NCBI GenBank assembly: GCA_963785635.1
Contig: CAWAWB010000015.1
Span: 1 to 64,000, forward strand
DNA length: 64,000 nt
Source of the DNA: an uncultured Phycisphaerales bacterium
Lineage (GTDB): Bacteria > Planctomycetota > Phycisphaerae > SM23-33 > FEN-1343
Direction of reading: 5' to 3'
In this document: positions 3,610 through 56,267 of the stretch, piece after piece
Numbering within the stretch: the stretch's first letter is position 1
How the letters are laid out: every line of letters starts with the position of its first letter
Translations under genes and position numbers: made by a program
Notes under the pieces: generated by a model
Databases searched by the model: none
The model's input: the letters and a program-made list of their open reading frames with translations, nothing else
What the model was told of the DNA's origin: nothing

Positions 3610-3837
3610 GAGAAATTCTCCCGAAAGCCCCGCCGCGACCAATGCACGCGCATCCCGGCGACAAGGGCAGCCTGCCCAGCGCTTATGGCTGGAGCGAAGA
3701 CTGTATGGGAATACTATCCCCGCGTCAACGGCGATTTGCAATGTCCGCCGTGGCGGACATTGCCGCGGCGAAGCTGAAAGCGGAGCCGGGAAGGCGAAGC
3801 CGGGCAGGTCTATGTGGCACAGCCGCGCTGTGGCTTT

Positions 3838-3910
3838 TACCTGTGCCCTGTGCCCTGTTCCCTGTAGCCTTTTTCCTGTACCCTGTGCCCTGATCCCTGT
3901 AACCTTTTTC
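3838..3910. repeat. tandem CCTGTNN heptamer array (about 8 units, arranged as 2 x about 36 bp) in the tig/nfeD divergent region
   Basis: Sequence cctgtgccctgtgccctgttccctgtagcctttttcctgtaccctgtgccctgatccctgtaacctttttcc. Confidence 0.8.
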
Positions 3911-3926
3911 CTAAGGCAGGTGAACA

Positions 3927-4571
3927 ATGGCGACCGTTCTTACGTGGTGGGGTCAATTGTCGGGCGTGAATCAGGCTTTTTACGCCGCCGCAATTTTCTT
4001 CAGCGTGTTTTTCGTGTGGCAGCTCATCTCGGCGCTGCTGGGTCTGGCGGGCGATCACGGAATCGCCGCGCATGATCTTGCCGGCGGCCACGATTTTGAT
4101 GCCCACGCCGAATCCACCTTGCACCACGAGGCCCCGCACGACGCCCACGACACCGTCCTGGCCTTCAGGCTCGTCAGCCTCCGCTCGGTGCTGGCCTTTT
4201 TGACGTTGTTTGCCTGGGCCACCGCCCTGTATATGAACAGCGGTCTGCCCCTCCACCGCAGCCTGTCCTTTGCCGCGCTGTGGGGCCTGGCCGCCATGAT
4301 CCTGGTGAGCCTGCTTGTGCACTGGCTTTCCAAACTCGGCGAAACCGGCAATATCCGCGTGGAAACCTGCATCGGCGCCACCGGCACGGTGTACCTGGAC
4401 ATCCCCGAGAAAGGCCCGGGTGAGATTCGAGTCATGTGTTCGGGCGTGTTAACCCATCTAAAAGCAGTCAGCGTCTCCGGACCCTTGAAGGCCGGCGCGG
4501 CCGTGCGCGTCATCCGCATCACCGGCCCCAATACCGTCGAAGTTCAGCAGTCCCAATCAGCGAATGCGTAG
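3927..4571 (+). CDS. NfeD-like membrane protein (flotillin-associated), with a His-rich loop
   Basis: Two or three TM helices and a C-terminal OB-fold-like segment. Directly precedes the flotillin gene, the classic nfeD-floT operon arrangement. His-rich stretch: AAHDLAGGHDFDAHAESTLHHEAPHDAHD. Confidence 0.65.
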   Translation: MATVLTWWGQLSGVNQAFYAAAIFFSVFFVWQLISALLGLAGDHGIAAHDLAGGHDFDAHAESTLHHEAPHDAHDTVLAFRLVSLRSVLAFLTLFAWATALYMNSGLPLHRSLSFAALWGLAAMILVSLLVHWLSKLGETGNIRVETCIGATGTVYLDIPEKGPGEIRVMCSGVLTHLKAVSVSGPLKAGAAVRVIRITGPNTVEVQQSQSANA

Positions 4572-6168: not shown

Positions 6169-6208
6169 GGCTCACGGGTCACGGCTTACGACTGGGCTGT
6201 GCTTTTTA

Positions 6209-6264
6209 CCCCTCCCCCTTTTACGGGGGAGGGTGGCCCGAAGGGCCGGGTGAGGGTTCTTCGG
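6209..6264 (+). repeat. 55-bp double-hairpin repeat element, copy 1 of 3
   Basis: Sequence cccctcccccttttacgggggagggtggcccgaagggccgggtgagggttctt. Near-identical copies at 41611-41667 (+) and 49304-49357 (reverse complement). Confidence 0.85.
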
Positions 6265-6370
6265 TCGCATGCCCTGACGTCGCGTTCTTCTGCGATGTGC
6301 AGGCGTGAAATAAAGGAACAGCTGAGGCTTACAGCTTAAGGCTTAAGAAATGCGTCCAAAACTGATTGAC

Positions 6371-6769
6371 CTACCGGCCGGAAGTATTCTCGCGTTCGCG
6401 AATAGCTTCAGCAATCTCACGAAACTCCATTGGAACCATCGTGTGTGCTCTTACATACCATTCGCAAACATCAAGCCACTGAGAGTTTTGGTAAAACGCC
6501 AGAACAATTGGTTTAATCCCTTGGTAAGAGATATCAAACCTGTCTTTTAGCTTCTCTTCGAAAAGGCCGAAATCTGGCGTAATGTGCTTGTTCAATTGAT
6601 TGCTAACTTCCTCGAAAATATCGTGCGCATCATTTAAATCATTTTCGCCCCAGTTCATCTCGGTAACTAAAGCAGCTATTGGATTTTCGTCAGAGTCAAT
6701 CGCCTCACCCAGCAAACGAACTTGAAATTGTAGTTTTTCGATTTCGCCTTCTAAGTCTCTATCGCTCAT
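6371..6769 (-). CDS. hypothetical acidic protein (132 aa) in a low-GC islet
   Basis: Clean ORF with AT-rich codon usage distinct from its surroundings. 13-bp spacing from the upstream gene. No recognisable motifs. Confidence 0.5.
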   Translation of the reverse strand: MSDRDLEGEIEKLQFQVRLLGEAIDSDENPIAALVTEMNWGENDLNDAHDIFEEVSNQLNKHITPDFGLFEEKLKDRFDISYQGIKPIVLAFYQNSQWLDVCEWYVRAHTMVPMEFREIAEAIRERENTSGR

Positions 6770-6782
6770 AAATCGTCCTCGA

Positions 6783-7232
6783 CTATAAGTGAAGCCTCAG
6801 GTGAACCCTGGATTTTGCCGTGGAGATACCTTCCTGGATCATTGTCCTCATCTTTGAAATGATCTCAGGATGATCTGTGTCTGATTGCCCCAATTCCGAA
6901 ACTAGGCCTTGCACGGCTGAGACCATGGCTCTTATGTCTCTATCGGGGCCATCTGAAGACAACCTGTTCAGAACACCATCAAGATGCCTCTGAATTTCGC
7001 TTAATGAGCTTCCTATCTTAAATCCTCTCCGATTCGACCGAATAGCATTTTCTAAAGCATTCAATTCACTTTGCAAATGAGTAAGTGACTGTTCAATGTC
7101 AGATAAAGTTATTTGTCTAAAATCAAGTTCAACAGCTTTCTTGACCCTAAAGGCTTTAAAAGCAGCCAAAACTGAAACAAGAGCGCCGACGATTGAAGCG
7201 AAATCAGCAATGTCAGTTATTATTGAGGACAT
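6783..7232 (-). CDS. hypothetical membrane-anchored coiled-coil protein (149 aa) in a low-GC islet
   Basis: N-terminal TM helix (IITDIADFASIVGALVSVLAAFKAF) followed by predicted coiled coil. Forms an operon with 6371..6769. Confidence 0.5.
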   Translation of the reverse strand: MSSIITDIADFASIVGALVSVLAAFKAFRVKKAVELDFRQITLSDIEQSLTHLQSELNALENAIRSNRRGFKIGSSLSEIQRHLDGVLNRLSSDGPDRDIRAMVSAVQGLVSELGQSDTDHPEIISKMRTMIQEGISTAKSRVHLRLHL

Positions 7233-7417
7233 ACTCGGAAACTAATCAAACATGAAGCTCGTATCTTGTCAATGTTTTATCCTGCCGGGTGCCGTGGAGG
7301 AAAACGCATGAAGGTCGGTACTGGCAATGCGAAACAGCCCTAAAGCAACCATAAATATGCAGTTTTTGGAGATAGCTGAACCTGCAATTTCACAAACATA
7401 ACGTTCAGCCATATGGA

Positions 7418-7615
7418 TCAGGCCCGAAGGGCCGGCAGTTGGTAGCCGGCGGCGTAAGCCGCCGGACCGGGCCGTTTTTTTGGAAAAGCCCCGAAGGGGC
7501 GGCAGAATCATGGAAATCCGCAAGAATCTGTCGCCCCGTTGGGGCTCTAAACAGTTTAGCGACCATACCGGGGGCTGACGCCCCCGGCTACCAACTGTCG
7601 CCCCATTCGGGGCTT
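7418..7615 (+). repeat. cluster of six GC-rich short hairpins (REP/BIME-like), with a 12-bp long-range helix enclosing four of them
   Basis: Hairpins ggcccGAAGggcc, ccggcggcGTAAgccgccgg (+T7), gccccGAAGgggc, cgccccGTTGgggc, ccgggggcTGACgcccccgg and gccccATTCggggc. cagttggtagcc (7436-7447) is the reverse complement of ggctaccaactg (7586-7597). Confidence 0.7.
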
Positions 7616-8159
7616 ATCATGCTTGCACGAAGTGGCCGACGTCCCCATTAATTCCCATTCCTGCAGTCACGTGAGCCGAAGGCTCGCGCCATCAAATCAA
7701 TTCTGTTCTGCGCCTTTCCTCTTTCCTCTGGACCTTTGTCCCGGTGCCGTGGCTGCAACCCCTCTCCCTTGGGAGAGGGCTTGTCCTGCGAAGCTTCAGC
7801 GGAGCGGGATGCCCCGAAGGGGCGGGCTTGCCCTGCGAAGCTTTAGCGAAGCAGGGTGAGGGTTTTCCAGCAGCCACGTCTCTGGCATCGTCATATATAA
7901 GTGCCTGTCTGATAGGCTATTATGATCGACTCCTACCACAACACATTTTTCCTGCCATTTTCTGCATTTTACACCTTTACAGAATCTGGCTAACCATGTA
8001 TCATAATACTTGTCATGGTAATGCAGATTCCAATGTGGAGGATCAGAAAGAGGGATACGGAAAATTCCAGCCCCGAACCATTCCCAGAATCGCGCGGCGG
8101 AGAACCTTTGCCTTTGCGGCCGCGCAAACACTCGAGTGAACCGGGATCGCCAAAGGGCT

Positions 8160-9500
8160 GTTTACATAGATCGAAGGAATTGCGGATTGCGGATTGCGGA
8201 TTGAAGAGAGACCTGATTGGGGCGGCGCCGACTCGAATCGGCCGGCCCGCCAGCAAAGTTTCTCGAATCAAATCCACAATCCTGAACTCCCGATCCGCTA
8301 CTGGTTTTGCCTATTCCGTGTTCGCCTGTACGTTGTGACTGTGCATATGCTGTCCCTTCTTCCAATTGCGGGGTCTGTACTCTTTGCAATCCGCAATTGG
8401 AAATGTCCGTTCCATGTTCACCCCGTAACCTTGTTCCGTCTGCCGTCCCCGCTTTCGTTGTTTCAGCTCCTTTCGGCATTCTTACGGAATTGCGGCGCTG
8501 CGGTTGTGCGCGGGCTGAGAGTCTTCTCAATCCGCAATCCGAAATCCGCAATCCGCAATTCTTCACCGGCTGTTTGGACGCATGGGGTTCGCAGAGCGCT
8601 TCAGCCGATTCCAGACTTGGCTGAAACCGCCGCGTTTCCGACTCCCGCGCGAGATGGTGGAGTTTGTACTTTTTTCTTCCGCCTGCTGCATGCAGGCACT
8701 TCGGTGTGCAGCTTCCTGCCTGACAGAGGCCGGGCAGGGCGAGCGGCTGCACATCTGGTCGCCTCGGCTTCAGATGTGAGAGCCCGCACGCAAGACCGGA
8801 GGGCGTTGGCATCATCCGTTTCGGCCGCTGGTGCAGGAGAAGTGAATCCGCCGCAGGGTTCATCGGTCCGCTCGTCAAACACCGTAACTGGTCCCTTTCG
8901 AGACGGCGGTGAGCGCCCCATCCGCACGATGACAGGCAACCGCATCATCACCCAAATGATGAGCAATTGCCCCATCTGCATGATGACCGGCAGCCCTGGG
9001 ACGGTGATTCCTGCGACCGGCCGCCGTTGCCTTGAGGCGTTCGCCACGGCGCACGCGCTTGAAGCGCAATTACGGATGCTGACCCATGCCTGGCGTCACC
9101 ATAGGACCGTGGAAATGAGAAAGCCCGCCACATCCACGGGGAATTGCGGATTGCGGATTTCGGATTGCGGATTGGAGCTGCCTGAGGCTGCATCACGTTC
9201 GCTCATCGAACCTAGGTGCTGCTGTCTTACAGTTCAGCCGCAAGCCGCCAATCCAAAATCTGCAATTCCAGAGGGTCGTAGATTGCGAATTGCCAGTCGC
9301 GGATCTGAACAACTTGAGATATCTCGTTCGCTCATCGAACGTGCATCGAGTCCTCTTGCTGTTCAATCCGCAATCCGAAATCCGCAATCCGCAATTCCTC
9401 TGACCGGCGTTGCGGGGAGACCTGTTTCCTCGAACGGGCGAGTTGTTGCGCATGACCGAACGTCGACCGCGCCACGGGCGTTCCAGCCTTATTCGCGGCG
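8160..9500. repeat. non-coding block dense in GGATTGC/GCAATCC heptamer arrays arranged as inverted pairs
   Basis: Forward arrays at about 8178, 8484, 9141 and 9280. Reverse arrays at about 8383, 8524, 9247 and 9362. Two adjacent units share the palindromic core cgttcgctcatcgaac. No credible ORF; the 514-aa ORF through this block translates the repeats. Confidence 0.8.
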
Positions 9501-9982
9501 GCCCGCGGCCATGAAACTGGTTAACCATTCCCCAGAACCCCATGCGAAATCCCTAGTCCAGACGGCGCGTGTGGATCAACGCGCCCGCTGGCATACCGTC
9601 CGCCCCGCGGCGACGCTACGGATAGCGCCGCCCCGGCGCGGCGGAGTTATTCTCGAAAAATTAGCCACGGAGGACACAGGAAAAGAAAAGAGAGGACACA
9701 GAGAACTGACAATTGACAAGGTACAAATGACAAATTGATCTAATCTACAATTGACAATTCAGGGATATGTGTCCTGCTCCTCCCCCGGGTGCTGCGGCCG
9801 TCCGCGGCCGTGCGCGCGATATTCAGGAAAACACAAGGTTCACCGGAAGCCAGGGAAACCTTCATCTACTTTGTTTTTTGCACACAGCACGGCCGCCCGC
9901 GGCCGTGGCGCCCTCGCATTATTAGTACCCTCCCATCATTATTCCACCCTCCCATCATTACGATCTCCCATCTTGCCGTTTC

Positions 9983-11569
9983 CGATTAACCGATTAACAC
10001 TACAACGCCACCTGATCCATTATGCAGCAACGTATTGACGATATTCGAATGCCAAGGCTACGCAACCGTCGCTTGCGTGTTTTCACGTGGCAGCGTCGCG
10101 CTTTCTCGTTTCGTGCCTGCGTTTGAGTAATAATCTCCGCCTCCCTGGCCAGGAAGCTTTGACGAACCTGTCCCGTCAGCCACAGGGAACGCACCAGCGC
10201 CGCGGCCGCCTGGCGAATCTGGCATACGGTCAGCTGCGGATTTTTCCCCCCGCCACTGTTCCTGAACCGTGGCCAGGAACAGGTGGCTGACGGCCGTCAG
10301 CAGCAGATGACGCTTCAAGGAGCGATACCGGCGAACCTCAAAATGGTCCAGCCCCAACTCGGACTTTTCCACCTCGAAGCATTGCTCGACCCTGTACCGC
10401 GTGAAGGCCACGTGCAACATCACCTCCAGCGGCGTGCCACCCGGCGCGTTGGAGACGAAGTATTTCACCTCCTGCGGCGCCAAAATGTTGCGGGCCACAA
10501 TCAACCAATGCGCCCGCGTCGGCAGACCATCCCGTTTCAAATACAGCCGCGCCGCCTTGACCTGCCAAACCTCCGGTCCCACCGTGCTGTCCTTGACATG
10601 GAACTTCCGCCACGCTTGTTTGCGAAAAGCTGCCCCGTAGCGCAGCATGTGGCGAACCTGGATGCAGGGCAGGGTCTTGACCTTCAGACGGGGATAATGC
10701 CTCGGCCGGCCGCGCCGCGTGGCCGCACGATGCTGTTTTTGAAGAACCTCCGGTTCGCGCAGCCAGCCGTAGAAAATCGACGGCACTTCCAGGACGTAGC
10801 GCTGGCCGCACTCGTCCAGGGCGCGATGAAAGTCCGGCACTTCGCCATAACCTTCATCCCCCGTCATCCATTCAAACCGAATCCCGTTGGCCACGGCGGC
10901 GGCACGCAGTTCCAGGGCGATCTGCCACTTGGGGCGATGCTGCATTGTGTCCGGGATGCCCGCCCCCCGGCACCGAGCACGATCATCGGACCATTCCTGC
11001 GGCAAGAACATCTCCCCCGGAAGCAGGGTGTGAAAGGCGCCCGCCACATAGCTGATATGCACCGTAACCACGCAGTTATCCACCTTGCCCGTGGCGCCGC
11101 AATATTGACGCTGCACGCCGGCGGTCTTGTCGCCCTTCTTGGGATGGGCCGTCTCATCCAACACGCCAATCGACAGGGGGTGGCTGTGTTGATCGCCCAC
11201 GATCTGCATCAACCGCTGGGCCATGCGCGCATCATCCCAGTCTGCCAGCGACAGGAACTGCTGAAGCGTCCGCGGCGGAACGTCGGCCCGGTCCGCCATC
11301 GGCTCGATGCTCTTGCGCGGCAGATCCGACAATTGACCGTTGACGTAAACCCGCAGGTTGCCACAGGGCTCGCTGCGGCTGAAACAGTCGTCAAATTGTC
11401 CCAGGTACTGTTCCAACATCGGCTTGAGCTCTCGCAATTGCTTGGCATCCATGCCGTATCTCCTTTCGGGAAAAGCGCTCCCGAAAGGAACTATCGTCTG
11501 GCCGCCTGAGCTTTCTTGAGCCCAGATGGCGTTGTAGTGCTAACGGATTAACCAGTTAACCGATAAACC
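9983..11569 (-). mobile_element. IS701-family insertion sequence with imperfect terminal inverted repeats of about 28-40 bp
   Basis: Left end cgattaaccgattaacactacaacgcc. Right end ggcgttgtagtgctaacggattaaccagttaaccgataaacc (reverse complement similar). Contains a single 464-aa DDE transposase ORF. Confidence 0.8.
10058..11452 (-). CDS. transposase, IS701/IS4-superfamily DDE type
   Basis: 464 aa. Overall architecture is typical of IS701-family transposases (TGDEGYGE, HxxR-type C-terminal region). Confidence 0.8.
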   Translation of the reverse strand: MDAKQLRELKPMLEQYLGQFDDCFSRSEPCGNLRVYVNGQLSDLPRKSIEPMADRADVPPRTLQQFLSLADWDDARMAQRLMQIVGDQHSHPLSIGVLDETAHPKKGDKTAGVQRQYCGATGKVDNCVVTVHISYVAGAFHTLLPGEMFLPQEWSDDRARCRGAGIPDTMQHRPKWQIALELRAAAVANGIRFEWMTGDEGYGEVPDFHRALDECGQRYVLEVPSIFYGWLREPEVLQKQHRAATRRGRPRHYPRLKVKTLPCIQVRHMLRYGAAFRKQAWRKFHVKDSTVGPEVWQVKAARLYLKRDGLPTRAHWLIVARNILAPQEVKYFVSNAPGGTPLEVMLHVAFTRYRVEQCFEVEKSELGLDHFEVRRYRSLKRHLLLTAVSHLFLATVQEQWRGEKSAADRMPDSPGGRGAGAFPVADGTGSSKLPGQGGGDYYSNAGTKRESATLPRENTQATVA

Positions 11570-13262: not shown

Positions 13263-14592
13263 ATGGGCCAGCAGGAGACAATCGGCATCGCCCTGGTCGG
13301 CTGCGGCACGGTGGGCAGCGCCGTCGTGCGGCTGCTGGTGCGCGACAACGAACTTTTGACCCGCCGCGCGGGCGTGCGGCCGCTGCTGCGCCACGTGGTG
13401 GATGTGGATTTCACCAAGGCCCGCCAGGCCGGGGCCGATCCCGCCATCTTCCGCAAGGATCTCGCCGAGGCGCTGGATGATGTGCAGACCCGCATCATCG
13501 TCGAGCTGGTCGGCGGCACGACCTTCGCGCGCACGGTCGTGGAGCGCTCGCTCAAGGCCGGCAAGCACGTCGTCACCGCGAACAAGGCGCTACTGGCCCA
13601 CCATGGCAACGAGCTGTGGGCTTTGGCCCGCGCCAACGGCGTGTGCATCGCCTTTGAAGGCAGCCTGCGTGGGCGGCGTGCCGGTGATCGGCACGTTGCT
13701 CAACGGCCTTTTAGCCAACGATATAGAGGCGATGTACGGCATCGTCAACGGCACGTGCAATTACATCCTGTCCAACATGTCCGCGCACGGCGCGCGCTAC
13801 GGCGATGTGCTGCTCCAGGCCCAGCAGGCGGGGCTGGCTGAGGCCAATCCCTCGCTGGATGTGCAGGGCACGGACTCCGCGCACAAGATCGCCATTTTAG
13901 GCGCACTGGCCTTCGGCCAGCGCATCGACTTCGACAAGATCCACATCGAAGGCATCGACAAGCTGGATGTGGCCGACATCCGCTACGGCCAGGAACTGGG
14001 CTACACGGTCAAGTTGCTGGCCATCGCCGAGCGGCTGGACGAAGGCGTGAGCCTGCGCGTACACCCCTCGTTCATTCCGGCCACTCATCCGCTGGCGCCG
14101 GTGTCGGGAGCGTTCAACGCGCTCTCCATTTTCGCCCACGCCACGGGCCACACGCTGTATTACGGGCGTGGCGCGGGCGGCATGCCCACGGCCTCGGCGG
14201 TGGTGTCGGATATCCTGTCCATCGGCCTGGATATCGCCCCGCGGCAGTTCCGCCAGTTGGGCATCTGGCCGGACCGGTCCAGGCAAGCCAACCAGTTGCC
14301 CATCGAGGATATCCGCAGCCGCTATTACCTGCGCATCACCGGCGAAGACCGGCCGGGCGTCTTAGGCGCGATCGCCGATGTGCTGGGCCGGCACGAGATT
14401 TCCTGCGCCAGCGTGCTCCAGCACGAGTCGCCATCCCCCGCGGGAGATGGCGTCCCCGTTATTATCACGACCTACGAGGCGGTCGAAGGCAATATCGCCA
14501 ACGCCCGCGCGGAAATCGACGGCCTGGAGAGCGTGAAGGCGCCCACGGTCATCATCAGAATTGTCATGGAGCACGAGGAACCAGTCGTTTAA
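13263..14592 (+). CDS. hom: homoserine dehydrogenase with C-terminal ACT domain, frame interrupted near 13660-13670
   Basis: NAD-binding GIALVGCGTVGSAV, catalytic core and ACT domain. ORFs 13263.. and 13402..14592 are one gene split by a small indel at FEGS|VGGVPVIG. Confidence 0.85.
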
Positions 14593-14593
14593 G

Positions 14594-14745
14594 AAATCCT
14601 AAATTCGAAATCCGAAATCCTAAACAATAAGACACAAAACTCGAATAAGAACAAAAGAACAGACAGGTAACGACATTTGCTCCGGGTTTGGGATTTTGAA
14701 ATTGTTTCGGATTTAGAATTTAGGATTTCGGATTTTTCGATTTTG
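14594..14745. terminator. long imperfect hairpin built from inverted heptamer arrays (AAATCCT/AAATCCG units and complements); putative bidirectional terminator between hom and apgM
   Basis: Left arm aaatcctaaattcgaaatccgaaatcctaaac. Right arm ...cggatttagaatttaggatttcggatttttcgattttg. Confidence 0.55.
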
Positions 14746-17422: not shown

Positions 17423-19403
17423 ATGGCACGGCAGATGACGGTGGGCAAGAAGATCGCGGCGGGATTCAGCATCGTTCTGGTGTTGCTCGTAGTCGTAGGA
17501 ACGATAGCCTGGTTTGCCTTGCACCAGGCTTCCGGCGGTTTTAGCCGCTTTGGAGTCATGGCGCATATCTGCAACGTGATGGGCGACCTCAAGGCTCAGA
17601 TGCTGACGCTCCAGATGGACGTCAAGGACTACCTCATCAGCAACTCCGACAACCATAAGCAGGACTTCGACACGTGCATCAAGGCCATGCGCGACAACCT
17701 GGAAAACACCAGGAAAGAGGTCAGCAGCCCGGAGCAGCTGGCGCTGCTTTCGTCCGTGGATAAACAGGTGACAGAATACGAAACGGTATTCGGCAAAGTC
17801 GTCGCGCTGACCGGCGAGCGCAACAGGCTCATCTTCAACGTGCTGGGACCCGCCGGCGTGAAGATCGAAGAGCACCTGGTTGCGCTGATGACCGCGGCCA
17901 ATGCGGACAACGACGTGCAGGGCGCGTACCTGGGCGGCCAGGTGGTCCGCTTCATGCTCTCGGGCCGGATGAGCGCCTGGCGTTTCATCCAGAAGCCCGA
18001 CCAGTCGCACGTCGATGCGGTACACAAGCACTGGGCGAACCTGGAGGAGCAACTGGCCGCGCTGGATAAGCAGCAGACCAACGCCGACCGCCGCAAGCTG
18101 GTGGCCGCCGCTCAACCTCTGGCGGCGGACTACATCAAGAAATTCGATGAGCTGGTGGCCGACACGAATGAGTGCAACGCGCACGTGGACAATCTCATCC
18201 AGCACGTCGGACCGGAATTCGAGCGCGTCACGACCGACATCGATAAGGCTGTCCGGAAGGACAAGAACGCCCTGGGCGACGCCGTGGCCTCCAACAACGC
18301 CATGGCGGCCCTGGTCATCACCATCGTCGGCGGCGCGGCCGTCGCGCTGGGTGTGCTCATGGCCACGCTGATCACGCGCGGCATTGCCAGGAAGCTGCGC
18401 CAGGTGATCGAGGGATTGACCAGCGGGTCTGAGCAGACCTCCTCCGCCGCGGGCCAGGTTTCCTCGGCCAGCCAGTCGCTGGCGCAGGGCGCATCGGAGC
18501 AGGCCGCGGCCATCGAAGAGACCACCTCGAGCATCGAGGAAATGGCCTCCATGACCAAGCAGAACGCCGGCAACGCCAACGAGGCCAAGCGCATGGCCGA
18601 TGTGGCGCAGGCAGCCGTGGAGAGCGGCACGGCGGCCATGACGCGCATGTCCGGCGCGATCGAACAGATCAAGAAATCCGCCGACCAGACGGGCAAGATC
18701 ATCAAGACCATCGACGAGATCGCCTTCCAGACCAACCTGCTGGCCTTAAACGCGGCCGTGGAAGCGGCCCGCGCGGGCGAGGCGGGCAAGGGCTTCGCCG
18801 TGGTGGCCGAAGAGGTGCGCAACCTGGCGCAGCGCTCGGCCGAGGCGGCGCAACACCGCGTCGCTGATTGAAGAGTCGCTCAAGAACGCCGAGAACGGCG
18901 TACACATCACGGGCGAGGTGGCCAAGTCGCTGACCGAGATCGCCACGGGCAACAAGAAGAGCAACGAGCTCATCCGCGAGATCGCCGCGGCCTGCTCCGA
19001 GCAGGCGCAGGGCATCGAGCAGGTGAACGTGGCGGTGAGCCAGATGGACCAGGTGACGCAATCCAACGCGGCCAACGCAGAAGAATCCGCCTCGGCCTCG
19101 GAGCAGCTTTCCGCACAGGCCCTGGAGCTCAACAGCATGGTGCAGCAACTGGCGGCCATGGTGGGCGGTGCGAATGCGGCTTCGGCAACCTCCGCTGGAA
19201 CATCACCTGCGGCCAAGGTGTACGGCGGCGCAGCCGCGCAGCGTGCAGCCTCAGCCGGCGTGAAGGGATCGGGCAAGGCGGCGGCCAAATCGGCCCGCGC
19301 AGGGTTGTCGGCGGAGCATAACATCAAGCTGCCGCCGCCCTCGGGCCACTCGTCCAAGGATGAGTTCGTGCTGCAGGAATCGGAAGAGATTGCAAAGTTT
19401 TAG
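17423..19403 (+). CDS. methyl-accepting chemotaxis protein (4HB sensor, TM, HAMP, MCP signalling domain), frame interrupted near 18850-18860
   Basis: Highly conserved MCP signalling hairpin ([44 protein letters not shown]). Continues in the next frame as [30 protein letters not shown].... Confidence 0.85.
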
Positions 19404-19460: not shown

Positions 19461-19684
19461 CTACTCATTGCGGATTGCGGATTGCGAATTGCGGATTGCT
19501 TTGGACAGAGACTTTGCTTTATCTATTCCGCCATCCGCGCAACCCATCGAGTTAATCGTTCAGCCCTTGATGCCCGCTTCAATTTCAATGGAGGATTGAG
19601 AAGGCAAAATAGCATCGGCTTGGCGTCCCTTATGCGGAACGTGGTTGGGAGCGAAATCCGCAATCCGCAATCCGCAATCCGAAA

Positions 19685-22038
19685 TTATTTTCCCGCCGTC
19701 ACGCCCTCCACCTCGCGAATCACGGCGATGAGCGATTCGGAGCTGCCGGACTTGGTGAGATAGGCGCTGGCGCCGGCGCTCAGCATGGCGGCCGCGCGGT
19801 CGGCCTGGTCGTACATGGACAGGCCGATGATGTGGATATCCGGCTGCTCGGCATGGATGACTTTGGTGGCCTCCACACCGTCCATAATGGGCATGCTGGC
19901 GTCCATGAGGATGACATCCGGGTGCAACCGCCGCGCCTGGTTGACTGCCTCCTGGCCGTCGCCAGCCTCGCCCAGGATCTCGATATCCGGCTCCTCCCGA
20001 AGCAGCGTGGCCAGGCCCTGCCGCATCACGGCGTGATCATCGGCCAGCAGCACGGAGATTTTTTCGCCGGCCACACGATGCGCGGCGATCAGTTCCTGCT
20101 TCTCGCCATCGGTCAAGCCGACCGCCGCCTTCAACGACGCCTCCGCCTTGGCCGAAAGGCGGCTGGGCGCGATCAACGTCACGCGCGTGCCCTTGCCGGG
20201 GGCGCTGTCGATATCCAGGCAACCGCCCAGGAGGAAGAGCCGCTCGCGAATGGAGAACAGGCCGAACCCGCCGGTGGCGGATTCCTGGTCGCCGGCGATC
20301 TGCTGGGCATCCCTGAAGCCTTTGCCCTCGTCGCTCACGACAATCTCCACATAATCTTCATCCACGCGCGACAACTTCACGGTCGCCTTGTCCACGCCGG
20401 CGTGTTTGACCACGTTGAAGAGCAGCTCGCGTATGGATTGGAACAACAGGATCTGGAGGTCCTTGCGCTCGAGCTGAATGTCTTCGACGATCTCCAGGTG
20501 TACGCTGAGGCCGTGCTTTTCCTGCATCCAGCGCGCCAGCCATTCCAGACCGGCGATCAGGCCGGCCTCCTTCAGGATCGCCGGGGAGAGGCTCGGCCGT
20601 CAACGCGCGGCAGGTCCTGATCGATTCCTCCGCCAGTCCCATGGCGCGCTCCAACTTGCCCCGCAGCGCATCGCTGGCCTGGCGGAGAGATACCTCCAGG
20701 CCGAACTTGATGCCTACCAGGAGCTGCTGGAGATGATCGTGCAGCACCTGCGCCAGCCGCTGCCGCTCGGCCTGTTCCACCATGGTCAGTTCGGAAGCCA
20801 GGCGGGAAAGCTGCGCGCACCCGGTGCTGAAGCTCGCACGTGCGCTCCTGAACGCGATCCTCCAGCTCATTGCGTGCCTTGACCAGGGCATCCTGGGCCT
20901 GCTTGTAGGCGGTGATGTCCCGGATGGCCGTAAAGCGTGTGGAGGAATCGTATGGAAAAGGCTTTCCGTGAGTCTCCACGTAAATCGCAGAGCCGTCCTT
21001 GCACAGCATGGGATGGTCCAGGTGGCTCTCCAGACCCCGAGAGATATTGTGCATGATGCGAGCGCGATCCGGCGGCCGAACAAACCGGGCGATCGGCTGG
21101 CCAATCAGTTCCTCGCGCCGATACTTTAACATTCCGGCCAGTTGGTCATTGATATCCACGTACTTTCCGTGATGGATGATGGCAATACCTTCAAATGTGG
21201 CCTCCGCCAGGCGGCGAAAGCGTTCCTCGCTGCGCTGCACGGCCTCCTGGGCCTGCTTGAGAGCGGTGATGCATTGGGCGGTGCCCGTCATGCGCACCGG
21301 CCTGCCGGAGTCATCGTAAATAGCCCGGCCGCAGGCTAAGATCCAGTGGATGCTCCCATCATCGTGCATGGCGCGGAATTCAACCGAATAATAAGCATGG
21401 CGATGAATCGCCTCTTCAACGCTGGTGCGAACCTTAGGCACATCCTCAGGATGCACCCGGCTGAAAAACACCTCGTAGGACTTGGGCGTATCTGTCGGAA
21501 GCCCCAGCAGGCGGCTGGCCTGATCACCCCATTTCAGATCATTGCCGACCAGGTCCCAGTCCCATGTCCCCACTTCAGCGGCCTCGGTCGTCAGCCGCAG
21601 CCTTTCCTCACTACTGGCCAGCGACTCCTGCGCGGCGGTCCGTTCGGCGAGTTCCCGGGCCATCTCATCGCGGTGGATTATGGCTTGCCGGCGCGCGGAG
21701 CGAATAATGTGCCCAAAAAGCACAATAAACGTAAACAACACGAAGTACGTGACAACCGAGATCGCATCACCGACATCGACAAAAGTCCAGGTGTAGCGAG
21801 GTATGTCAAAAAAATAATCGCCCACAAAATAACCGAGGATACCGGCCAGAATGGATGGTCCCAGACTGCCGAACCAGGCTACGGCGACTACAGCCATCAG
21901 GAACATAAACAACGGCGCGCGCGGACCCAGATACGGGTCCAGCAGCAACCTCACCACAAAAGCGATTGCAACTGCCGAAATGGCCGCAAGATACCCCCCC
22001 ACCAGTGCACAAGCTTTGGATTTGCGCATTACACCCAC
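19685..22038 (-). CDS. hybrid sensor kinase (DUF4118-like membrane N-terminus, 2 x PAS, HisKA_3 H-box, HATPase_c, C-terminal receiver), two frame interruptions near 20583-20595 and 20812-20825
   Basis: Three overlapping minus-strand ORFs join into one protein: ...ELEDRVQERT | SELTMVEQAERQRLAQVLHDHLQQ | ...LIAGLEWLARWMQEKHGLSVHLE...NVVKHAG... + REC (ISVLLADDHAVMRQGL...). Confidence 0.75.
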
Positions 22039-23631: not shown

Positions 23632-23785
23632 CGTGTTTGCCCTGCCGCCAGCCGTCCGGGTGAAAGAGACGCAACTCCTGTTGGCATCGTAACCTGTGCG
23701 AACCTACTCCTTCAAGTCCCCCATCTAAACGACCCAGGAGGACTGAAGGTTCCATTGAAAGGCCTTCTCCAGCCAACAAGCGGGG

Positions 23786-23877
23786 CACAAAGAGCACCAA
23801 GGACACCAAGAGCACGAAGAGTAATGAAAAAGCTTCTTTCTTGGTGCTCTTTGTGATCTTGGTGTGCTTGGTGTTAA
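23786..23877. repeat. inverted pair of CACCAAG-type heptamer arrays (same unit family as 29083-29162)
   Basis: Left cacaaagagcaccaaggacaccaagagcacgaagag. Right ctttcttggtgctctttgtgatcttggtgtgcttggtgtt. Confidence 0.75.
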
Positions 23878-29082: not shown

Positions 29083-29162
29083 AACACCAAGAACACCAAG
29101 CTCACCAAGAGCACCAAAAAGAGTATTTGGAATTGTTTAGTGTCCTTGGCGCTCTTGGTGAT
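29083..29162. repeat. inverted pair of CACCAAG-type arrays
   Basis: Left aacaccaagaacaccaagctcaccaagagcaccaaa. Right tagtgtccttggcgctcttggtgat. Confidence 0.75.
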
Positions 29163-36566: not shown

Positions 36567-37719
36567 CCGAGCAGATTACGTCCATGCCCGAAGCCGCGCC
36601 GCCGCACGAGGCCGCCCGCGCACCCGGCGACAAGGCGGAAAAACTCTACCGCGCCAGCCAGTGGCAATTGATGTGGCGCCGCCTCAAGAAGCACCGCCTG
36701 GCGATGGTCGCGATGGTGATCGTGGGATTTCTGTACGTGGTGGCGATCTTCGGCGAGGTCTTTGCCACGGGCCGACCGGAAAATACCAGCGAGCTGGCGC
36801 ACCTGCCGCCGCAGCAATTGCACTTTTTCGACCGGGGCCGGCTCTTCCCGCACGTTCAGGGCCTCTTGGCCCAGCGCGACCCCGAGACGCGGGAGTGGAT
36901 TTACGTTAACGACCCCGAGGTAAAAATTCCCGTCCACATCTTCGGCAAAGGTTTTGCCTACAAGCTTCTGGGCTTCATCCCGTGCAGCCGCCACATCCTG
37001 TGCGTTGAGCCGGGCCAAACGCGACAGGACATTTATCTTTTAGGCACGGACGACATCGGCCGCGACATGTGGAGCCGCCTGGTCTTCGCCACGCGCATCT
37101 CCATGTCCATCGGCCTGGTGGGCGTATCACTCAGCTTGATCCTGGGCATCACCATCGGCGGCATCTCGGGCCTGTACGGCGGCTGGGTGGATAGTCTCAT
37201 TCAGCGTGTGATCGAGCTTATCCGCTCCATCCCCACCATTCCCCTGTGGATGGGCCTGGCCGCGGCGGTTCCCAAGGGCTGGTCGGTTTTGCAGGTGTAC
37301 TTCACGATCACGATTATCATCTCGCTTTTGGGCTGGACGCAGCTGGCCCGCGTGGTCCGCGGCAAGTTCCTCTCGCTGCGCGAGGAGGATTTCGTCACCG
37401 CCGCGCGGCTGATGGGCTCCGGGCCCATGCGGATCATCTTCCGCCACCTGGTGCCCAACTTCATCAGCCACATCATCGCCGCCACCACGCTGGCGATTCC
37501 GGGCATGATCTTAAGCGAGACGGCGCTGAGCTTCCTGGGCCTGGGGCTTCGCCCGCCGGCCATCAGTTGGGGCGTGCTGCTCCAGCGGCGCAGAACATCC
37601 AGACCATCGCCCAGTACCCCTGGCTGCTGATCCCGGCCATCGCGGTCATCGCGGCGGTGCTGGCGTTCAACTTTTTAGGGGATGGCCTGCGGGATGCGGC
37701 CGACCCATATTCACGGTGA
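36563..37719 (+). CDS. ABC transporter permease (OppC/DppC-like), frame interrupted near 37575-37590
   Basis: N-terminal OppC-type extension plus BPD_transp_1. Joined at WGVLLQ|[18 protein letters not shown]...[15 protein letters not shown]. Confidence 0.8.
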
Positions 37720-37844
37720 TTGCGGATTGCGGATTTCGTATTTCGGATTGAAAGAGAATCAGTCGCCTCATTCCGTTGAAACGTCGATGAATTATTGGCT
37801 ACCCTGTTTGCGGTGATAGTGCAGGGCAAATCGAGGAACACATT

Positions 37845-38497: not shown

Positions 38498-38625
38498 GGC
38501 TGTAGGCTGTAGGCTGTAGGCTGTAGGCTGTAGGCTGTAGGCTGTAGGCACAACCGGAATACTACCGGTCGTCCCTTTTCCAGCCGTTCCTACAGTCTAC
38601 AGACTACAGTCTACAGTCTACAGCC
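38498..38625. repeat. inverted octamer arrays: (GGCTGTAG) x 6.5 on the left, (CTACAGTC)-type x 4.5 on the right
   Basis: Read directly from the sequence. The right-arm units differ from the exact complement by one position per unit; on the plus-strand RNA these would be G-U wobble pairs. Confidence 0.85.
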
Positions 38626-47722: not shown

Positions 47723-47797
47723 TCTTTGTAGTTTGTAGTTTGTAGTTTGCAGTTTGTAGTTTGTAGTTTGAAGTTTGTAGTTTGAAGTTTGAAATTT
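47723..47797 (+). repeat. direct tandem array (TTTGTAG) x about 10 immediately upstream of the HAD hydrolase gene
   Basis: Sequence ctttgtagtttgtagtttgtagtttgcagtttgtagtttgtagtttgaagtttgtagtttgaagtttgaaatttc. Confidence 0.9.
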
Positions 47798-51862: not shown

Positions 51863-51954
51863 GACTACAACTCCTCATTTCGATTGCGGATTGCGATTGC
51901 GGATTGACTCAACTCAGTGAAGGTTCAATCAGCCATCGCAACGTGCAACCTGGT

Positions 51955-56094: not shown

Positions 56095-56267
56095 GGAACA
56101 CAAAGACCACAAAGGTCACAAAGAACACAAAGGTCACAAAGAACACAAAGAAAGAAAACTCAGAGTAAAAGCCAGACCAAGACACGGGCTCTTCTTTTCT
56201 TTTGACATTGGATTTATTCTTTCTTCGTGTCCTTTGTGTTCTTTGTGACCTTTGTGTTGCTCTTTGT
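56095..56267. repeat. inverted pair of CACAAAG-type heptamer arrays between lpdA and the dehydrogenase gene
   Basis: Left gaacacaaagaccacaaaggtcacaaagaacacaaaggtcacaaagaacacaaag. Right tcttcgtgtcctttgtgttctttgtgacctttgtgttgctctttgtt. Confidence 0.85.

Follow-up and report, generated by a model that had tools for sequence, protein, structure and literature searches.

The block at 8160-9500 of the 64-kb window (the whole stretch of DNA analysed here) raises the question of what kind of entity is formed by dense arrays of the heptamer GGATTGC (forward, F) and its complement GCAATCC (reverse, R), lying, as the first-pass annotation had placed them, between a low-GC stretch, here to the left, and an insertion sequence (IS), to the right; our analysis assigned the latter a DDE_5 transposase. 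Homologs at 50-61% identity suggest a Planctomycetota-like source for the window. Reports of heptanucleotide arrays date from 1990 for cyanobacteria and from 2007 for prokaryotes at large. To our knowledge no origin or function for them is generally accepted. Our delineation recovered heptad arrays at all the places listed in that annotation (8176-9398, 19464-19688, 37716-37750 and 51878-51906). Its division of the block into four units stood with respect to the arrays but not to the boundaries: the first unit is confined to 8176-8298 and a separate palindrome occupies 8362-8400, giving five hairpin units altogether, namely element A (8176-8298), the mini-palindrome (8362-8400), and elements B (8486-8562), C (9140-9268) and D (9280-9398).

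Element A comprises a plus-strand forward arm (8176-8203; GGAATTGCGGATTGCGGATTGCGGATTG), an interior with a GC-rich apical hairpin (8204-8268) and a degenerate minus-strand reverse arm (8269-8298; CAAATCCACAATCCTGAACTCCCGATCCGC) that is 63% identical to the reference reverse arm (family D1); the two arms pair in the predicted fold of the element (dG -53.3, z -3.8). The mini-palindrome CCAATTGCGGG...CCGCAATTGG, each arm of which amounts to about one heptad, forms an 11-bp stem (dG -17.5, z -5.2). Element B joins a degenerate forward arm (8486-8510, plus strand; GGAATTGCGGCGCTGCGGTTGTGCG) to a minus-strand reverse arm (8528-8562), of which 8528-8561 can pair at every position (34/34) with 9141-9174 in the forward arm of C. 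The reverse arm of B also matches that of D, and the likeness runs about 12 nt into the outer flank (8527-8570 against 9363-9408, 93% identity over 46 nt). Beyond a spacer of 577 nt in which no gene was detected (8563-9139), element C begins with a plus-strand forward arm (9140-9174; GGAATTGCGGATTGCGGATTTCGGATTGCGGATTG) and ends with a degenerate minus-strand reverse arm (9247-9268; CCAATCCAAAATCTGCAATTCC), and element D has the opposite arrangement, with a degenerate plus-strand forward arm (9280-9307; AGATTGCGAATTGCCAGTCGCGGATCTG; 64% to the reference forward arm) and an intact minus-strand reverse arm (9364-9398). Both enclose the plus-strand core palindrome CGTTCGCTCATCGAAC, at 9196-9211 and 9325-9340 respectively, and its longer version ATCnCGTTCGCTCATCGAAC was located at 9192-9211 and 9321-9340, in agreement with the earlier observation of a core shared by two adjacent units.

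Elements B, C and D are thus copies of one arm-interior-arm element, C and D being a head-to-tail pair that shares the core CGTTCGCTCATCGAAC and B a copy devoid of it. Jointly, C and D make up a single quasi-palindrome of 259 nt with perfect 35-nt outer arms (9140-9174 with 9364-9398, 35/35 complementary). Across the block the strong pairings are likewise the outer ones, the other being 8177-8203 with 8535-8561 (96%), with the inner arms degenerate. Recent local duplication, or copying from one arm to another, is suggested by the perfect match between the outermost arms of C and D and by B, whose reverse arm is identical. The annotation had also proposed that RNA folding be checked on both strands, and the region 9130-9410 folds equally well on each (dG -133 and -136 kcal/mol, z -8.2 and -9.6), with the hairpin folds of the block spanning z values from -3.8 to -9.6.

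The block offers no sign of coding capacity, as had been supposed. Genuine genes in this DNA have a GC3 of 0.7-0.9, a range that no frame within 7232-10058 attains, whereas the 514-aa open reading frame (ORF) through the block has a GC3 of 0.57. This ORF is repeat translation, as the annotation had held: the heptad lacks stop codons in all six frames and for that reason generates a long spurious ORF. We rejected a hidden gene, because searches with the ORFs of the block yielded no Pfam match and no homolog was found for the 148-aa ORF at 8601-9047 on the minus strand. A weak coding-like GC periodicity, a compositional hint of about 200 nt, is seen on the minus strand at 8850-9060. The sole Rfam match in the vicinity, to Acido-Lenti-1, lies at 7420-7614, outside the block. 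The earlier exclusion of a CRISPR array also holds, the unit being 7 nt with no spacers. The ends of the adjacent IS (TTAACCGATTAACACTACAACGCCACCTG) are unrelated to the heptad arms. We infer that the block consists of orphan copies in a gene-poor junkyard beside the IS and other palindromic repeats.

The arrays are by no means confined to the block. Period-7 arrays with three or more copies number 22 in the window, as against 0.23 per dinucleotide shuffle, and the exact GGATTGC heptamer occurs 10 times on the plus and 15 times on the minus strand, where about 4 per strand are expected. The GGATTGC arrays comprise five in the forward orientation (8176-8203, 9140-9174, 19464-19499, 37716-37750 and 51878-51906) and three in the reverse orientation (8528-8562, 9364-9398 and 19654-19688). 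Nearly all the arrays of the window are intergenic, and many lie against a gene end. For example, element E, outside the block, has a plus-strand forward arm (19464-19499) situated after a hairpin downstream of the gene 18918-19403, and a minus-strand reverse arm (19654-19688) that abuts the stop codon of the minus-strand gene 19685-20527. A solo plus-strand forward arm (37716-37750) overlaps with its first unit the TGA (37717-37719) that ends an oppC-like permease gene; the oppC gene of the nearest relative (L119) has no array after it, and the same nonamer family is present there at a different locus. Another solo plus-strand forward arm (51878-51906) lies about 18 nt upstream of the start codon (51862) of a minus-strand gene, within whose leader it reads as an AAUCC-type array. 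Directly after a stop codon at 14592 there is a pair of arrays of the related unit GGATTTC (14593-14744) in R...F order, a counter-example to the F...R orientation rule described below. Further units that form arrays in the window are TGACAAT, CAAATTC and TTTGTAG.

The related loci that we gathered number at least 330 and span many phyla: at least 118 come from genomes (Acidobacteriota, Planctomycetota, Verrucomicrobiota, Chloroflexota, Gemmatimonadota, Bacteroidota and others), at least 120 from metagenomes, each with one exact 29-mer variant, and 92 from viral contigs. Brumicola pallidula DSM 14239 (L056) is one named carrier of the arm. Their arms are of fixed size, 31-33 nt, with five GATT cores at 7-nt spacing, in the form (G)ATTGCGG four times followed by ATTG, that is, a tandem array without internal complementarity. 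The length of GGATTGC arrays peaks at 31-33 nt (82 of 162), and their ends are phased, with 76% starting at (G)ATTG and 77% finishing at GGATT(G). The modal array has five units (120 of 209 arrays), or 4.3-4.7 copies when expressed as copy number. When periods 5-12 were compared, a second mode at 4-5 copies emerged for period 7 alone and weakly for period 9. Period 7 accounts for 283 of the roughly 400 arrays in the window and the 118 genome loci; heptamers other than GGATTGC, as a group, also display the 4-5-copy mode, and about 90 different heptamer units obey the same size rule. In the partner arms of the metagenome set the GATT positions vary in 0-5% of cases, as against up to 42% for the central spacers, and the first G of the GG varies in up to 22% of central units. 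A polar mode of array growth was considered and not adopted, as mismatches did not differ significantly between the two halves, 5' and 3' (p = 0.07). The size and phasing of the arrays speak for a discrete element and against open-ended slippage.

Whole elements, with arms and a homologous loop, recur in unrelated contexts in other genomes. Their loops are 84% (L166/L202), 74% (L166/L126) and 74% (L173/L223) identical, compared with a maximum of 68-71% among shuffled loops, and the flanks are at background identity. A class of 14-nt loops, aligned from eight elements, has G and A fixed at positions 1 and 2, C and G at 7 and 8, and T and C at 13 and 14. The presence of such copies at unrelated sites suggests that the elements move, or have moved, as units. 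Target-site duplications were sought in 82 F...R elements, and the flanking direct repeats followed the distribution obtained with mismatched flanks. Neither the ends of the adjacent IS nor a 1.3-kb F...R interval at one related locus (L026), in which no recognisable transposase is encoded, nor the genome fragments searched disclosed an autonomous parent or mobilising enzyme.

The related loci are further marked by a strict polarity. Pairs of arrays less than 200 nt apart are arranged as F...R (GGATTGC...GCAATCC) in 94 instances and as R...F in none. In 122 isolated bacterial arrays the 5' end of the F strand points toward a gene boundary 101 times and the 3' end 29 times, the 5' end facing stop codons 44 times and opposite-strand start codons 57 times. 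An array lies within 10 nt after a stop codon in 35 of 127 isolated cases, compared with 8 of 127 at the other end. In six groups of orthologous loci, with flanks 71-92% identical, the arrays stay in place while the loops diverge or gain indels, and the changes within arms fall chiefly in the 3-nt spacers that separate the GATT cores. Variants common to both arms of a pair number 65, only slightly above the 44 +/- 6 obtained with random partners, and one-sided differences number 230; given so slight an excess and so many one-sided differences, many pairs may be two independent arrays. The arm-to-arm covariation excess being weak, we dropped a hairpin under pairing selection as the main explanation. 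Certain arms consist uniformly of a variant unit absent from their partner (L084), which fits slippage within an arm. In-place conservation and post-stop position are as compatible with a host function as with a selfish element.

There is good support for regarding the block as a local group of small foldback (hairpin) repeats, and for placing these elements in the class of intergenic heptanucleotide arrays known from cyanobacteria (STRR), Xanthomonas and other genomes. The fuller reading, to which we assign a probability of about one half, is that it is a cluster of dispersed REPIN-like or foldback-like hairpins that are copied as a unit and whose arms are maintained. Other accounts of the same observations can be weighed against it. 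Should the arrays be functionless and immobile products of replication slippage, to which heptamers would be the most susceptible unit, the block would simply be slippage-prone DNA. For most prokaryotic genomes heptanucleotides are the commonest class of long simple sequence repeats (SSRs), and a slippage tied to the footprint of the polymerase has been proposed for them (Mrazek 2007, in the summaries given by PMC4679880 and PMC4692102); the multitude of different units and the internal homogeneity of some arms for a variant unit would also suit such a process. Yet slippage should yield a monotonic decay of copy number and not the sharp mode at 4-5, and it does not account for phase-specific ends, for the 94-to-0 excess of F...R pairs, for one 29-mer common to at least 120 metagenome loci or for homologous loops at unrelated loci. 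Moreover, an exact array is kept in orthologs whose flanks are about 70% identical, for which the neutral chance is estimated at about 0.75^29, and we regard slippage alone as unlikely. A structured non-coding RNA transcribed from the block, which the annotation had listed among its options, is very improbable. Only the folding energy speaks for it (dG -133 kcal/mol, z -8.2 for 9130-9410), and the two strands fold alike, as in any DNA palindrome. Rfam yielded nothing for the block at E values of up to 1, and no promoter-like sites lie inside it, the scan of 7200-10100 having returned 2 (7976-8004 and 9994-10023) where 1.8 are expected, and its arms are common to hundreds of loci with unrelated interiors.

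A stronger contender, which we hold possible but less so than the reading preferred here, is a gene-boundary element selected by the host. In this case the arm would be a binding site or structure kept at gene ends, singly or as a convergent pair, which might act as a hairpin terminator or 3'-end stabiliser, as a barrier to antisense transcription, or as a site for a nucleoid or topoisomerase protein (compare REP/BIME); the block would then represent the leftovers of lost genes, and a selfish origin would be compatible with it. The post-stop placement, the almost wholly intergenic location of the arrays in the window with the overlap of a stop codon at 37717-37719, the retention of arrays at orthologous sites with flanks 10-30% diverged, and the position-specific constraint on the GATT cores all favour it, as do the Xanthomonas arrays, which are similarly placed and mostly transcribed (PMC4692102). 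However, the orientation of the arrays tracks geometry and not transcript sense: the 5' end of F faces stops and starts alike, so that one RNA-level function cannot explain both. The sequence 3' of the arms is not T-rich and lacks the U-tract of an intrinsic terminator, and terminator-like sites in the block (3 versus 3.6 expected) show no enrichment, with none at arrays. Some 90 heptamer units under one size rule argue against a single sequence-specific binding protein, and no gene was detected beside the four or five copies in the block. Several further ideas (CsrA GGA sites, Rho rut sites, DnaA boxes, Chi-like sites, uptake sequences, ribbon-helix-helix heptad operators, and mimicry of the tRNA T-arm or the 16S 3' end) were set aside, none of them accounting for one size rule across many unrelated units.

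An element consists of an arm of about 33 nt with five (G)GATT(G) cores, a variable interior and the same arm inverted. Under the preferred reading of a dispersed, unit-copied hairpin, the hairpin would be the copied unit, gaining new extragenic sites without duplicating its target, by a process that may resemble the single-strand hairpin mobility of REP/REPIN or IS200-type elements, or else recombination or template switching, and probably not the cut-and-paste of a DDE MITE. After arrival the arms would be kept by selection or homogenisation, with drift altering the loops and spacer bases; elsewhere than in the block the outer ends lie against gene boundaries, where long DNA or RNA hairpins could form. 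More speculatively still, and with rather low confidence, the five-heptad arm and its counterparts of 7- and 9-nt units could constitute a discrete, ruler-limited element, written or recognised by a putative enzyme or protein present in many soil and sediment phyla and in some of their viruses. If true, this would represent either a REP/RAYT-like system outside Proteobacteria or a new repeat-writing activity, and would explain a 35-year-old puzzle, the dominance of arrays of about four heptamer units among bacterial intergenic repeats.

The block is a local pile-up of a widespread and poorly understood repeat and not a one-off oddity. Four regularities, namely fixed size, end polarity, in-place conservation and copies with homologous loops, are unexplained by plain slippage or G-quadruplex formation, and the question of heptamer arrays becomes testable in Planctomycetota, Acidobacteriota, Verrucomicrobiota and Chloroflexota, where REP-like elements are not known to have been described. 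The arrays also matter in practice: being stop-free in every frame, they give rise to long spurious ORFs, the 514-aa one among them, and can lengthen real genes in annotation, and they are likely break points of metagenome assembly.

Among known systems are the REP elements and REPIN doublets, mobilised by RAYT (Y1 HUH) transposases whose gene is flanked by the repeats, and the BIMEs of Proteobacteria. The present elements resemble them in having an extragenic unit of about 35 nt, single or as an inverted hairpin doublet, without target-site duplication, often at gene 3' ends, and in their long vertical inheritance with conserved arms and more variable spacers. Unlike REPs, which are short imperfect palindromes with a conserved 5' GTAG-type tetranucleotide, the arm here is made of tandem heptads, and unlike the lineage-specific REP families it is common to several phyla. 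With MITEs and eukaryotic Foldback elements they share small size, the lack of coding sequence, inverted ends, a variable interior and the occurrence of neighbouring copies, and with Foldback elements also ends built of tandem short repeats. The MITE-like nest was the closest of the annotation's options, upheld by terminal inverted repeats (35/35 for arms 9140-9174/9364-9398), by dispersed copies with homologous interiors (B, C and D in the window and the loop families across unrelated loci) and by fixed polarity, but not by target-site duplications, which are missing, nor by the unrelated IS ends. Unlike MITEs, furthermore, they have no parent transposon with matching ends in the genome fragments searched, and unlike both MITEs and Foldback elements their copies persist at orthologous sites despite much sequence divergence.

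The TAACTGA repeats of Beggiatoaceae, cyanobacteria and Bacteroidetes are nearly all direct, lie just upstream of start codons, and include one indirect (inverted) set among 170 (PMC4679880). Like these repeats of 2-6 copies, the arrays described here are intergenic direct heptamer repeats beside gene boundaries, with a patchy cross-phylum distribution that suggests transfer; unlike them, they commonly form inverted pairs and face both stop and start codons. The known heptanucleotide arrays, namely the cyanobacterial STRR, the (GGGAATC)n of Xanthomonas, the (GGGGAYT)n of Nostoc and the long SSRs of Mrazek et al. 2007, likewise have a 7-nt unit and are strongly over-represented and intergenic. 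The proximity to ORFs typical of STRR is found in the window and at the related loci, while the arrays of the block itself adjoin no gene. In Xanthomonas the arrays have a modal size of about 4 units, are close to the upstream ORF and frequently form convergent stem-loop pairs (PMC4692102), to which the 4.3-4.7-copy mode and the 94 convergent inverted pairs correspond. The G-quadruplex proposed for Xanthomonas and Nostoc is at odds with the arrays here: there are GG tracts only, the first G is variable, and heptamers that are not G-rich keep the 4-5 copies. Our literature search found no paper on the GGATTGC repeat. The present family thus differs from the known heptanucleotide arrays in its unit, GGATTGC, in its span of many phyla and, in the window, in its clustered arm-interior-arm elements with a shared core.

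The GGATTGC-type (F) and GCAATCC-type (R) arrays reported by the first-pass annotation lie where it had placed them, with F arrays on the forward strand at 8176-8203, 9140-9174, 19464-19499, 37716-37750 and 51878-51906, and R arrays, on the reverse strand, at 8528-8562, 9364-9398 and 19654-19688. Exact copies of the heptamer number 10 on one strand of the window and 15 on the other, with about 4 expected per strand. The repeated core was likewise recovered as the 20-nt ATCnCGTTCGCTCATCGAAC, whose two copies, at 9192 and 9321, point the same way. The four-unit layout proposed for the gene-free block (8160-9500) was right in its array positions but not in its unit boundaries, and the block is better described as five hairpins. 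These are element A (8176-8298; good F arm, degenerate r arm at 8269-8298), a mini-palindrome (8362-8400) with arms of about one heptad each, element B (8486-8562; degenerate f arm, good R arm), element C (9140-9268; perfect F arm, core, degenerate r arm) and element D (9280-9398; degenerate f arm, core, perfect R arm). In each half of the block, decay has affected the inner arms and left the outer ones good. The outer arms of C and D (9140-9174 and 9364-9398) are complementary at 35/35 positions, including a G-to-T change in unit three of one arm that the other mirrors. The 9140-9398 segment matches its reverse complement at 71% over 272 columns, and each strand folds into a single long hairpin (-133 and -136 kcal/mol; z -8.2 and -9.6). 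A 34-mer of these outer arms recurs as the R arm of B, where the resemblance extends across some 12 nt of the outer flank (93% across 46 nt), and B and D have in common a segment comprising 'gagtc', the R arm and 'accggc', the core being absent from B. From the shared arms and the shared B/D segment, local duplication has made B, C and D as copies of a single arm-interior-arm element.

The claim that the block is non-coding held as far as it could be tested. Window genes have GC3 values of 0.7-0.9, and nothing between 7232 and 10058 reaches this range; the 514-aa ORF through the block (GC3 only 0.57) exists because GGATTGC repeats, read in any of the six frames, contain no stop codon. No ORF of the block gave a Pfam match. 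The sole faint coding-like periodicity (8850-9060, minus strand) falls inside ORF 8601-9047(-), for which a search of 5.8 billion proteins gave no homolog.

The geneless 2.8-kb stretch also carries two inverted Acido-Lenti-1 motifs, further short repeats and an insertion sequence (IS). The motifs (RF01687; 7420-7465(-) and 7568-7614(+)) lie in about 200 nt (7416-7618) whose overall quasi-palindromic character (~70%) makes the pair look like another doublet-type repeat. A 47-nt direct repeat (83% identical) is found at 7772-7811 and 7819-7858, with GCCCCGAAGGGGCGG between its copies at 7811-7825 and again at 7488-7502. The low-GC stretch at 6200-8100 (GC ~0.50 versus 0.61) is probably foreign DNA; its small ORFs, 6371-6769(-) and 6783-7232(-), have GC3 of 0.39-0.44 and marginal Pfam matches only (DUF1878, 25 bits). 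Between the block and the IS are a (TGACAAT)7 array (9707-9759) and then a GC-rich inverted repeat (9787-9813/9887-9913). The IS (9982-11555) encodes a DDE_5 transposase (10058-11452(-)) and has 29-nt terminal inverted repeats (9986-10014 and 11523-11551; 83%), with 8-mer tandem repeats at or just outside its ends (CCGATTAA at one, TTAACCAG-like at the other); neither end is related to the heptad arms.

The block exemplifies a genome-wide feature and is unusual in its density, with four or five elements in the 2.8-kb geneless stretch. In the window, 22 period-7 arrays reach three or more copies, compared with 0.23 per dinucleotide shuffle, and six arrays have period 9. Nine pairs of arrays with reverse-complementary units lie less than 400 nt apart, their units including GAAATCC, GCACCAAGA, CGAATGT, CAAATTC, GGCTGTA and GAACACAAA, and every pair that was folded formed a long hairpin. 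Nearly all window arrays are intergenic and many adjoin a gene end: the first bases of the array at 37716 fall inside the TGA terminating an oppC-like permease, and the 19654-19688 array abuts an opposite-strand stop codon. This permease shows an apparent frameshift (37590-37719), its Pfam-supported frame ending at 37630 and its canonical C-terminus lying in a different frame that ends at 37719, through assembly error or in reality. A nonamer family, GAACACAAA/TTCTTTGTG, of ~4.2-6.3 copies also forms inverted pairs, with window sites at 56096-56258, 23785-23875 and 29083-29117; one such pair occurs at a non-orthologous site, between tsf and pyrH (3814-3967), in L119, the nearest relative (61% protein identity).

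An 18-nt array probe recovered at least 118 loci from species-representative genomes, which among the matches listed span Acidobacteriota, Planctomycetota, Verrucomicrobiota, Chloroflexota, Gemmatimonadota, Bacteroidota, Nitrospirota, Desulfobacterota and other phyla. An exact 29-mer of a window arm, variant included, is present in at least 120 metagenome contigs of 40 to 73% GC, and the 18-mer probe matched 92 predicted viral contigs. The source genome is not among these loci; it appears to be a MAG, with planctomycetal sequences as its closest protein homologs (50-61% identity). Three predicted viral contigs (IMG/VR; L291, L301 and L309) have five to seven exact 18-mer matches within 9-13 kb, which merge into four to six GGATTGC-type arrays with a size mode again of ~32 nt.

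Array length peaks at 31-33 nt (82 of 162 among the matches listed), corresponding to five GATT cores at 7-nt spacing, and five is also the modal unit number (120/209 arrays). The ends are phase-specific, 76% starting (G)ATTG and 77% finishing GGATT(G) among the matches listed. Copy number decays monotonically at periods 5-12 except for a second mode of 4-5 copies at period 7, which is also seen in heptamers unrelated to GGATTGC and is weak at period 9; other units in metagenome loci likewise have 4.3-4.7 copies, and arrays in viral contigs are of the same size as elsewhere. Two unusually long, pure window arrays, (TTTGTAG)9.6 (47725-47791, ending 20 nt ahead of a gene start) and (GGCTGTA)7.4 (38498-38549), are outliers to this rule. 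Polarity is fixed as well: pairs less than 200 nt apart were F...R 94 times and R...F never among the matches listed. A single R...F pair, built on the related unit GGATTTC, occurs in the window (14593-14744). At isolated arrays in bacterial loci the end or start of a long ORF adjoins the F-strand 5' end 101 times and the 3' end 29 times, by ORF calls that are crude in a test that is symmetric, and stop codons no more than 10 nt from the 5' end are present in 35/127 cases, versus 8/127 for the other end. At two outside loci (L015, L016) an array directly adjoins the start of opposite-strand prepilin-type (GFTLIE-motif) genes, its final unit supplying the ATG in L016.

In the partner arms of the metagenome set, which had not been selected by the probe, GATT positions depart from consensus in 0-5% of cases and the 3-nt spacers (GCG) between the cores in up to 42%, the central ones above all. 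Six groups of orthologous loci with flanks 71-92% identical keep their arrays in place, with loops altered or bearing indels and arm differences mainly in the spacers; a second heptamer family, CCCGTTT, is also conserved in place (L137 versus L185). Elements in unrelated contexts have loops in common (L166/L202 84%, L166/L126 74%, L173/L223 74%; shuffled loops at most 68-71%) with flanks at background identity, and one loop class is exactly 14 nt with fixed G1 A2.... C7 G8.... T13 C14 in eight aligned elements. The number of variants common to both arms of a pair barely exceeds that for random partners (65 versus 44 +/- 6), and 230 differences are one-sided, so perfect pairing is not the feature maintained; the perfect C/D arms are an exception to this independence and look recent.

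The block is a cluster of foldback elements, and we propose that each hairpin is a small mobile or copy-paste element, of which fixed polarity and paralogous whole elements would be expected. The feature itself is real and was correctly observed, and its earlier interpretation was partly right: a nest of foldback elements stands, but not one of classical MITEs, as the loci examined showed no parent transposon and 82 elements showed no target-site duplication. This disfavors DDE-type MITEs and favors a REP/REPIN-like or recombination-based spread, by which the elements may have been disseminated. The alternative of a structured non-coding RNA has no support beyond the palindromic folding, in which both strands behave alike.

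Open-ended replication slippage would not produce arrays with a size mode, phase-specific ends and fixed polarity, nor would it account for exact arrays retained over ~30% flank divergence and for the loops that elements share; within an arm it probably does take place, since one variant unit fills certain arms throughout. The main rival is a role for the host at gene boundaries, which fits the conservation in place and the proximity to stop codons. Against it, array orientation tracks geometry rather than transcript sense, a U-tract is absent, and ~90 unrelated units follow one size rule. Such a role may coexist with a selfish origin, as the two do in REP/BIME sequences. The block alone is of moderate interest; the regularities found through it would deserve genome-wide study.

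Among known systems, the foldback elements of the window look like MITEs and Foldback elements, yet lack their target duplications, and behave like REPINs, yet without the defining features of REP sequences. The array sequence itself had no match in the literature searched. Among long simple repeats, heptanucleotide ones are the most abundant in the majority of prokaryotic genomes (Mrazek 2007, in the summary given by PMC4679880). The (GGGAATC)n arrays of Xanthomonas mostly have four units, are intergenic, follow the upstream ORF by ~28 nt and make up 70-75 convergent inverted pairs, and Nostoc (GGGGAYT)n arrays have similar near-ORF locations and again prefer four units; no function is known for them, and the role suggested was formation of G-quadruplexes (PMC4692102). 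We reject that explanation for the GGATTGC arrays: the tracts are only GG, the first G varies in up to 22% of central units in related loci, and heptamers other than GGATTGC share the 4-5-copy mode. The window arrays, built on a new unit, GGATTGC, belong with those of Xanthomonas and Nostoc, and the block is a further member of this known, unexplained class.
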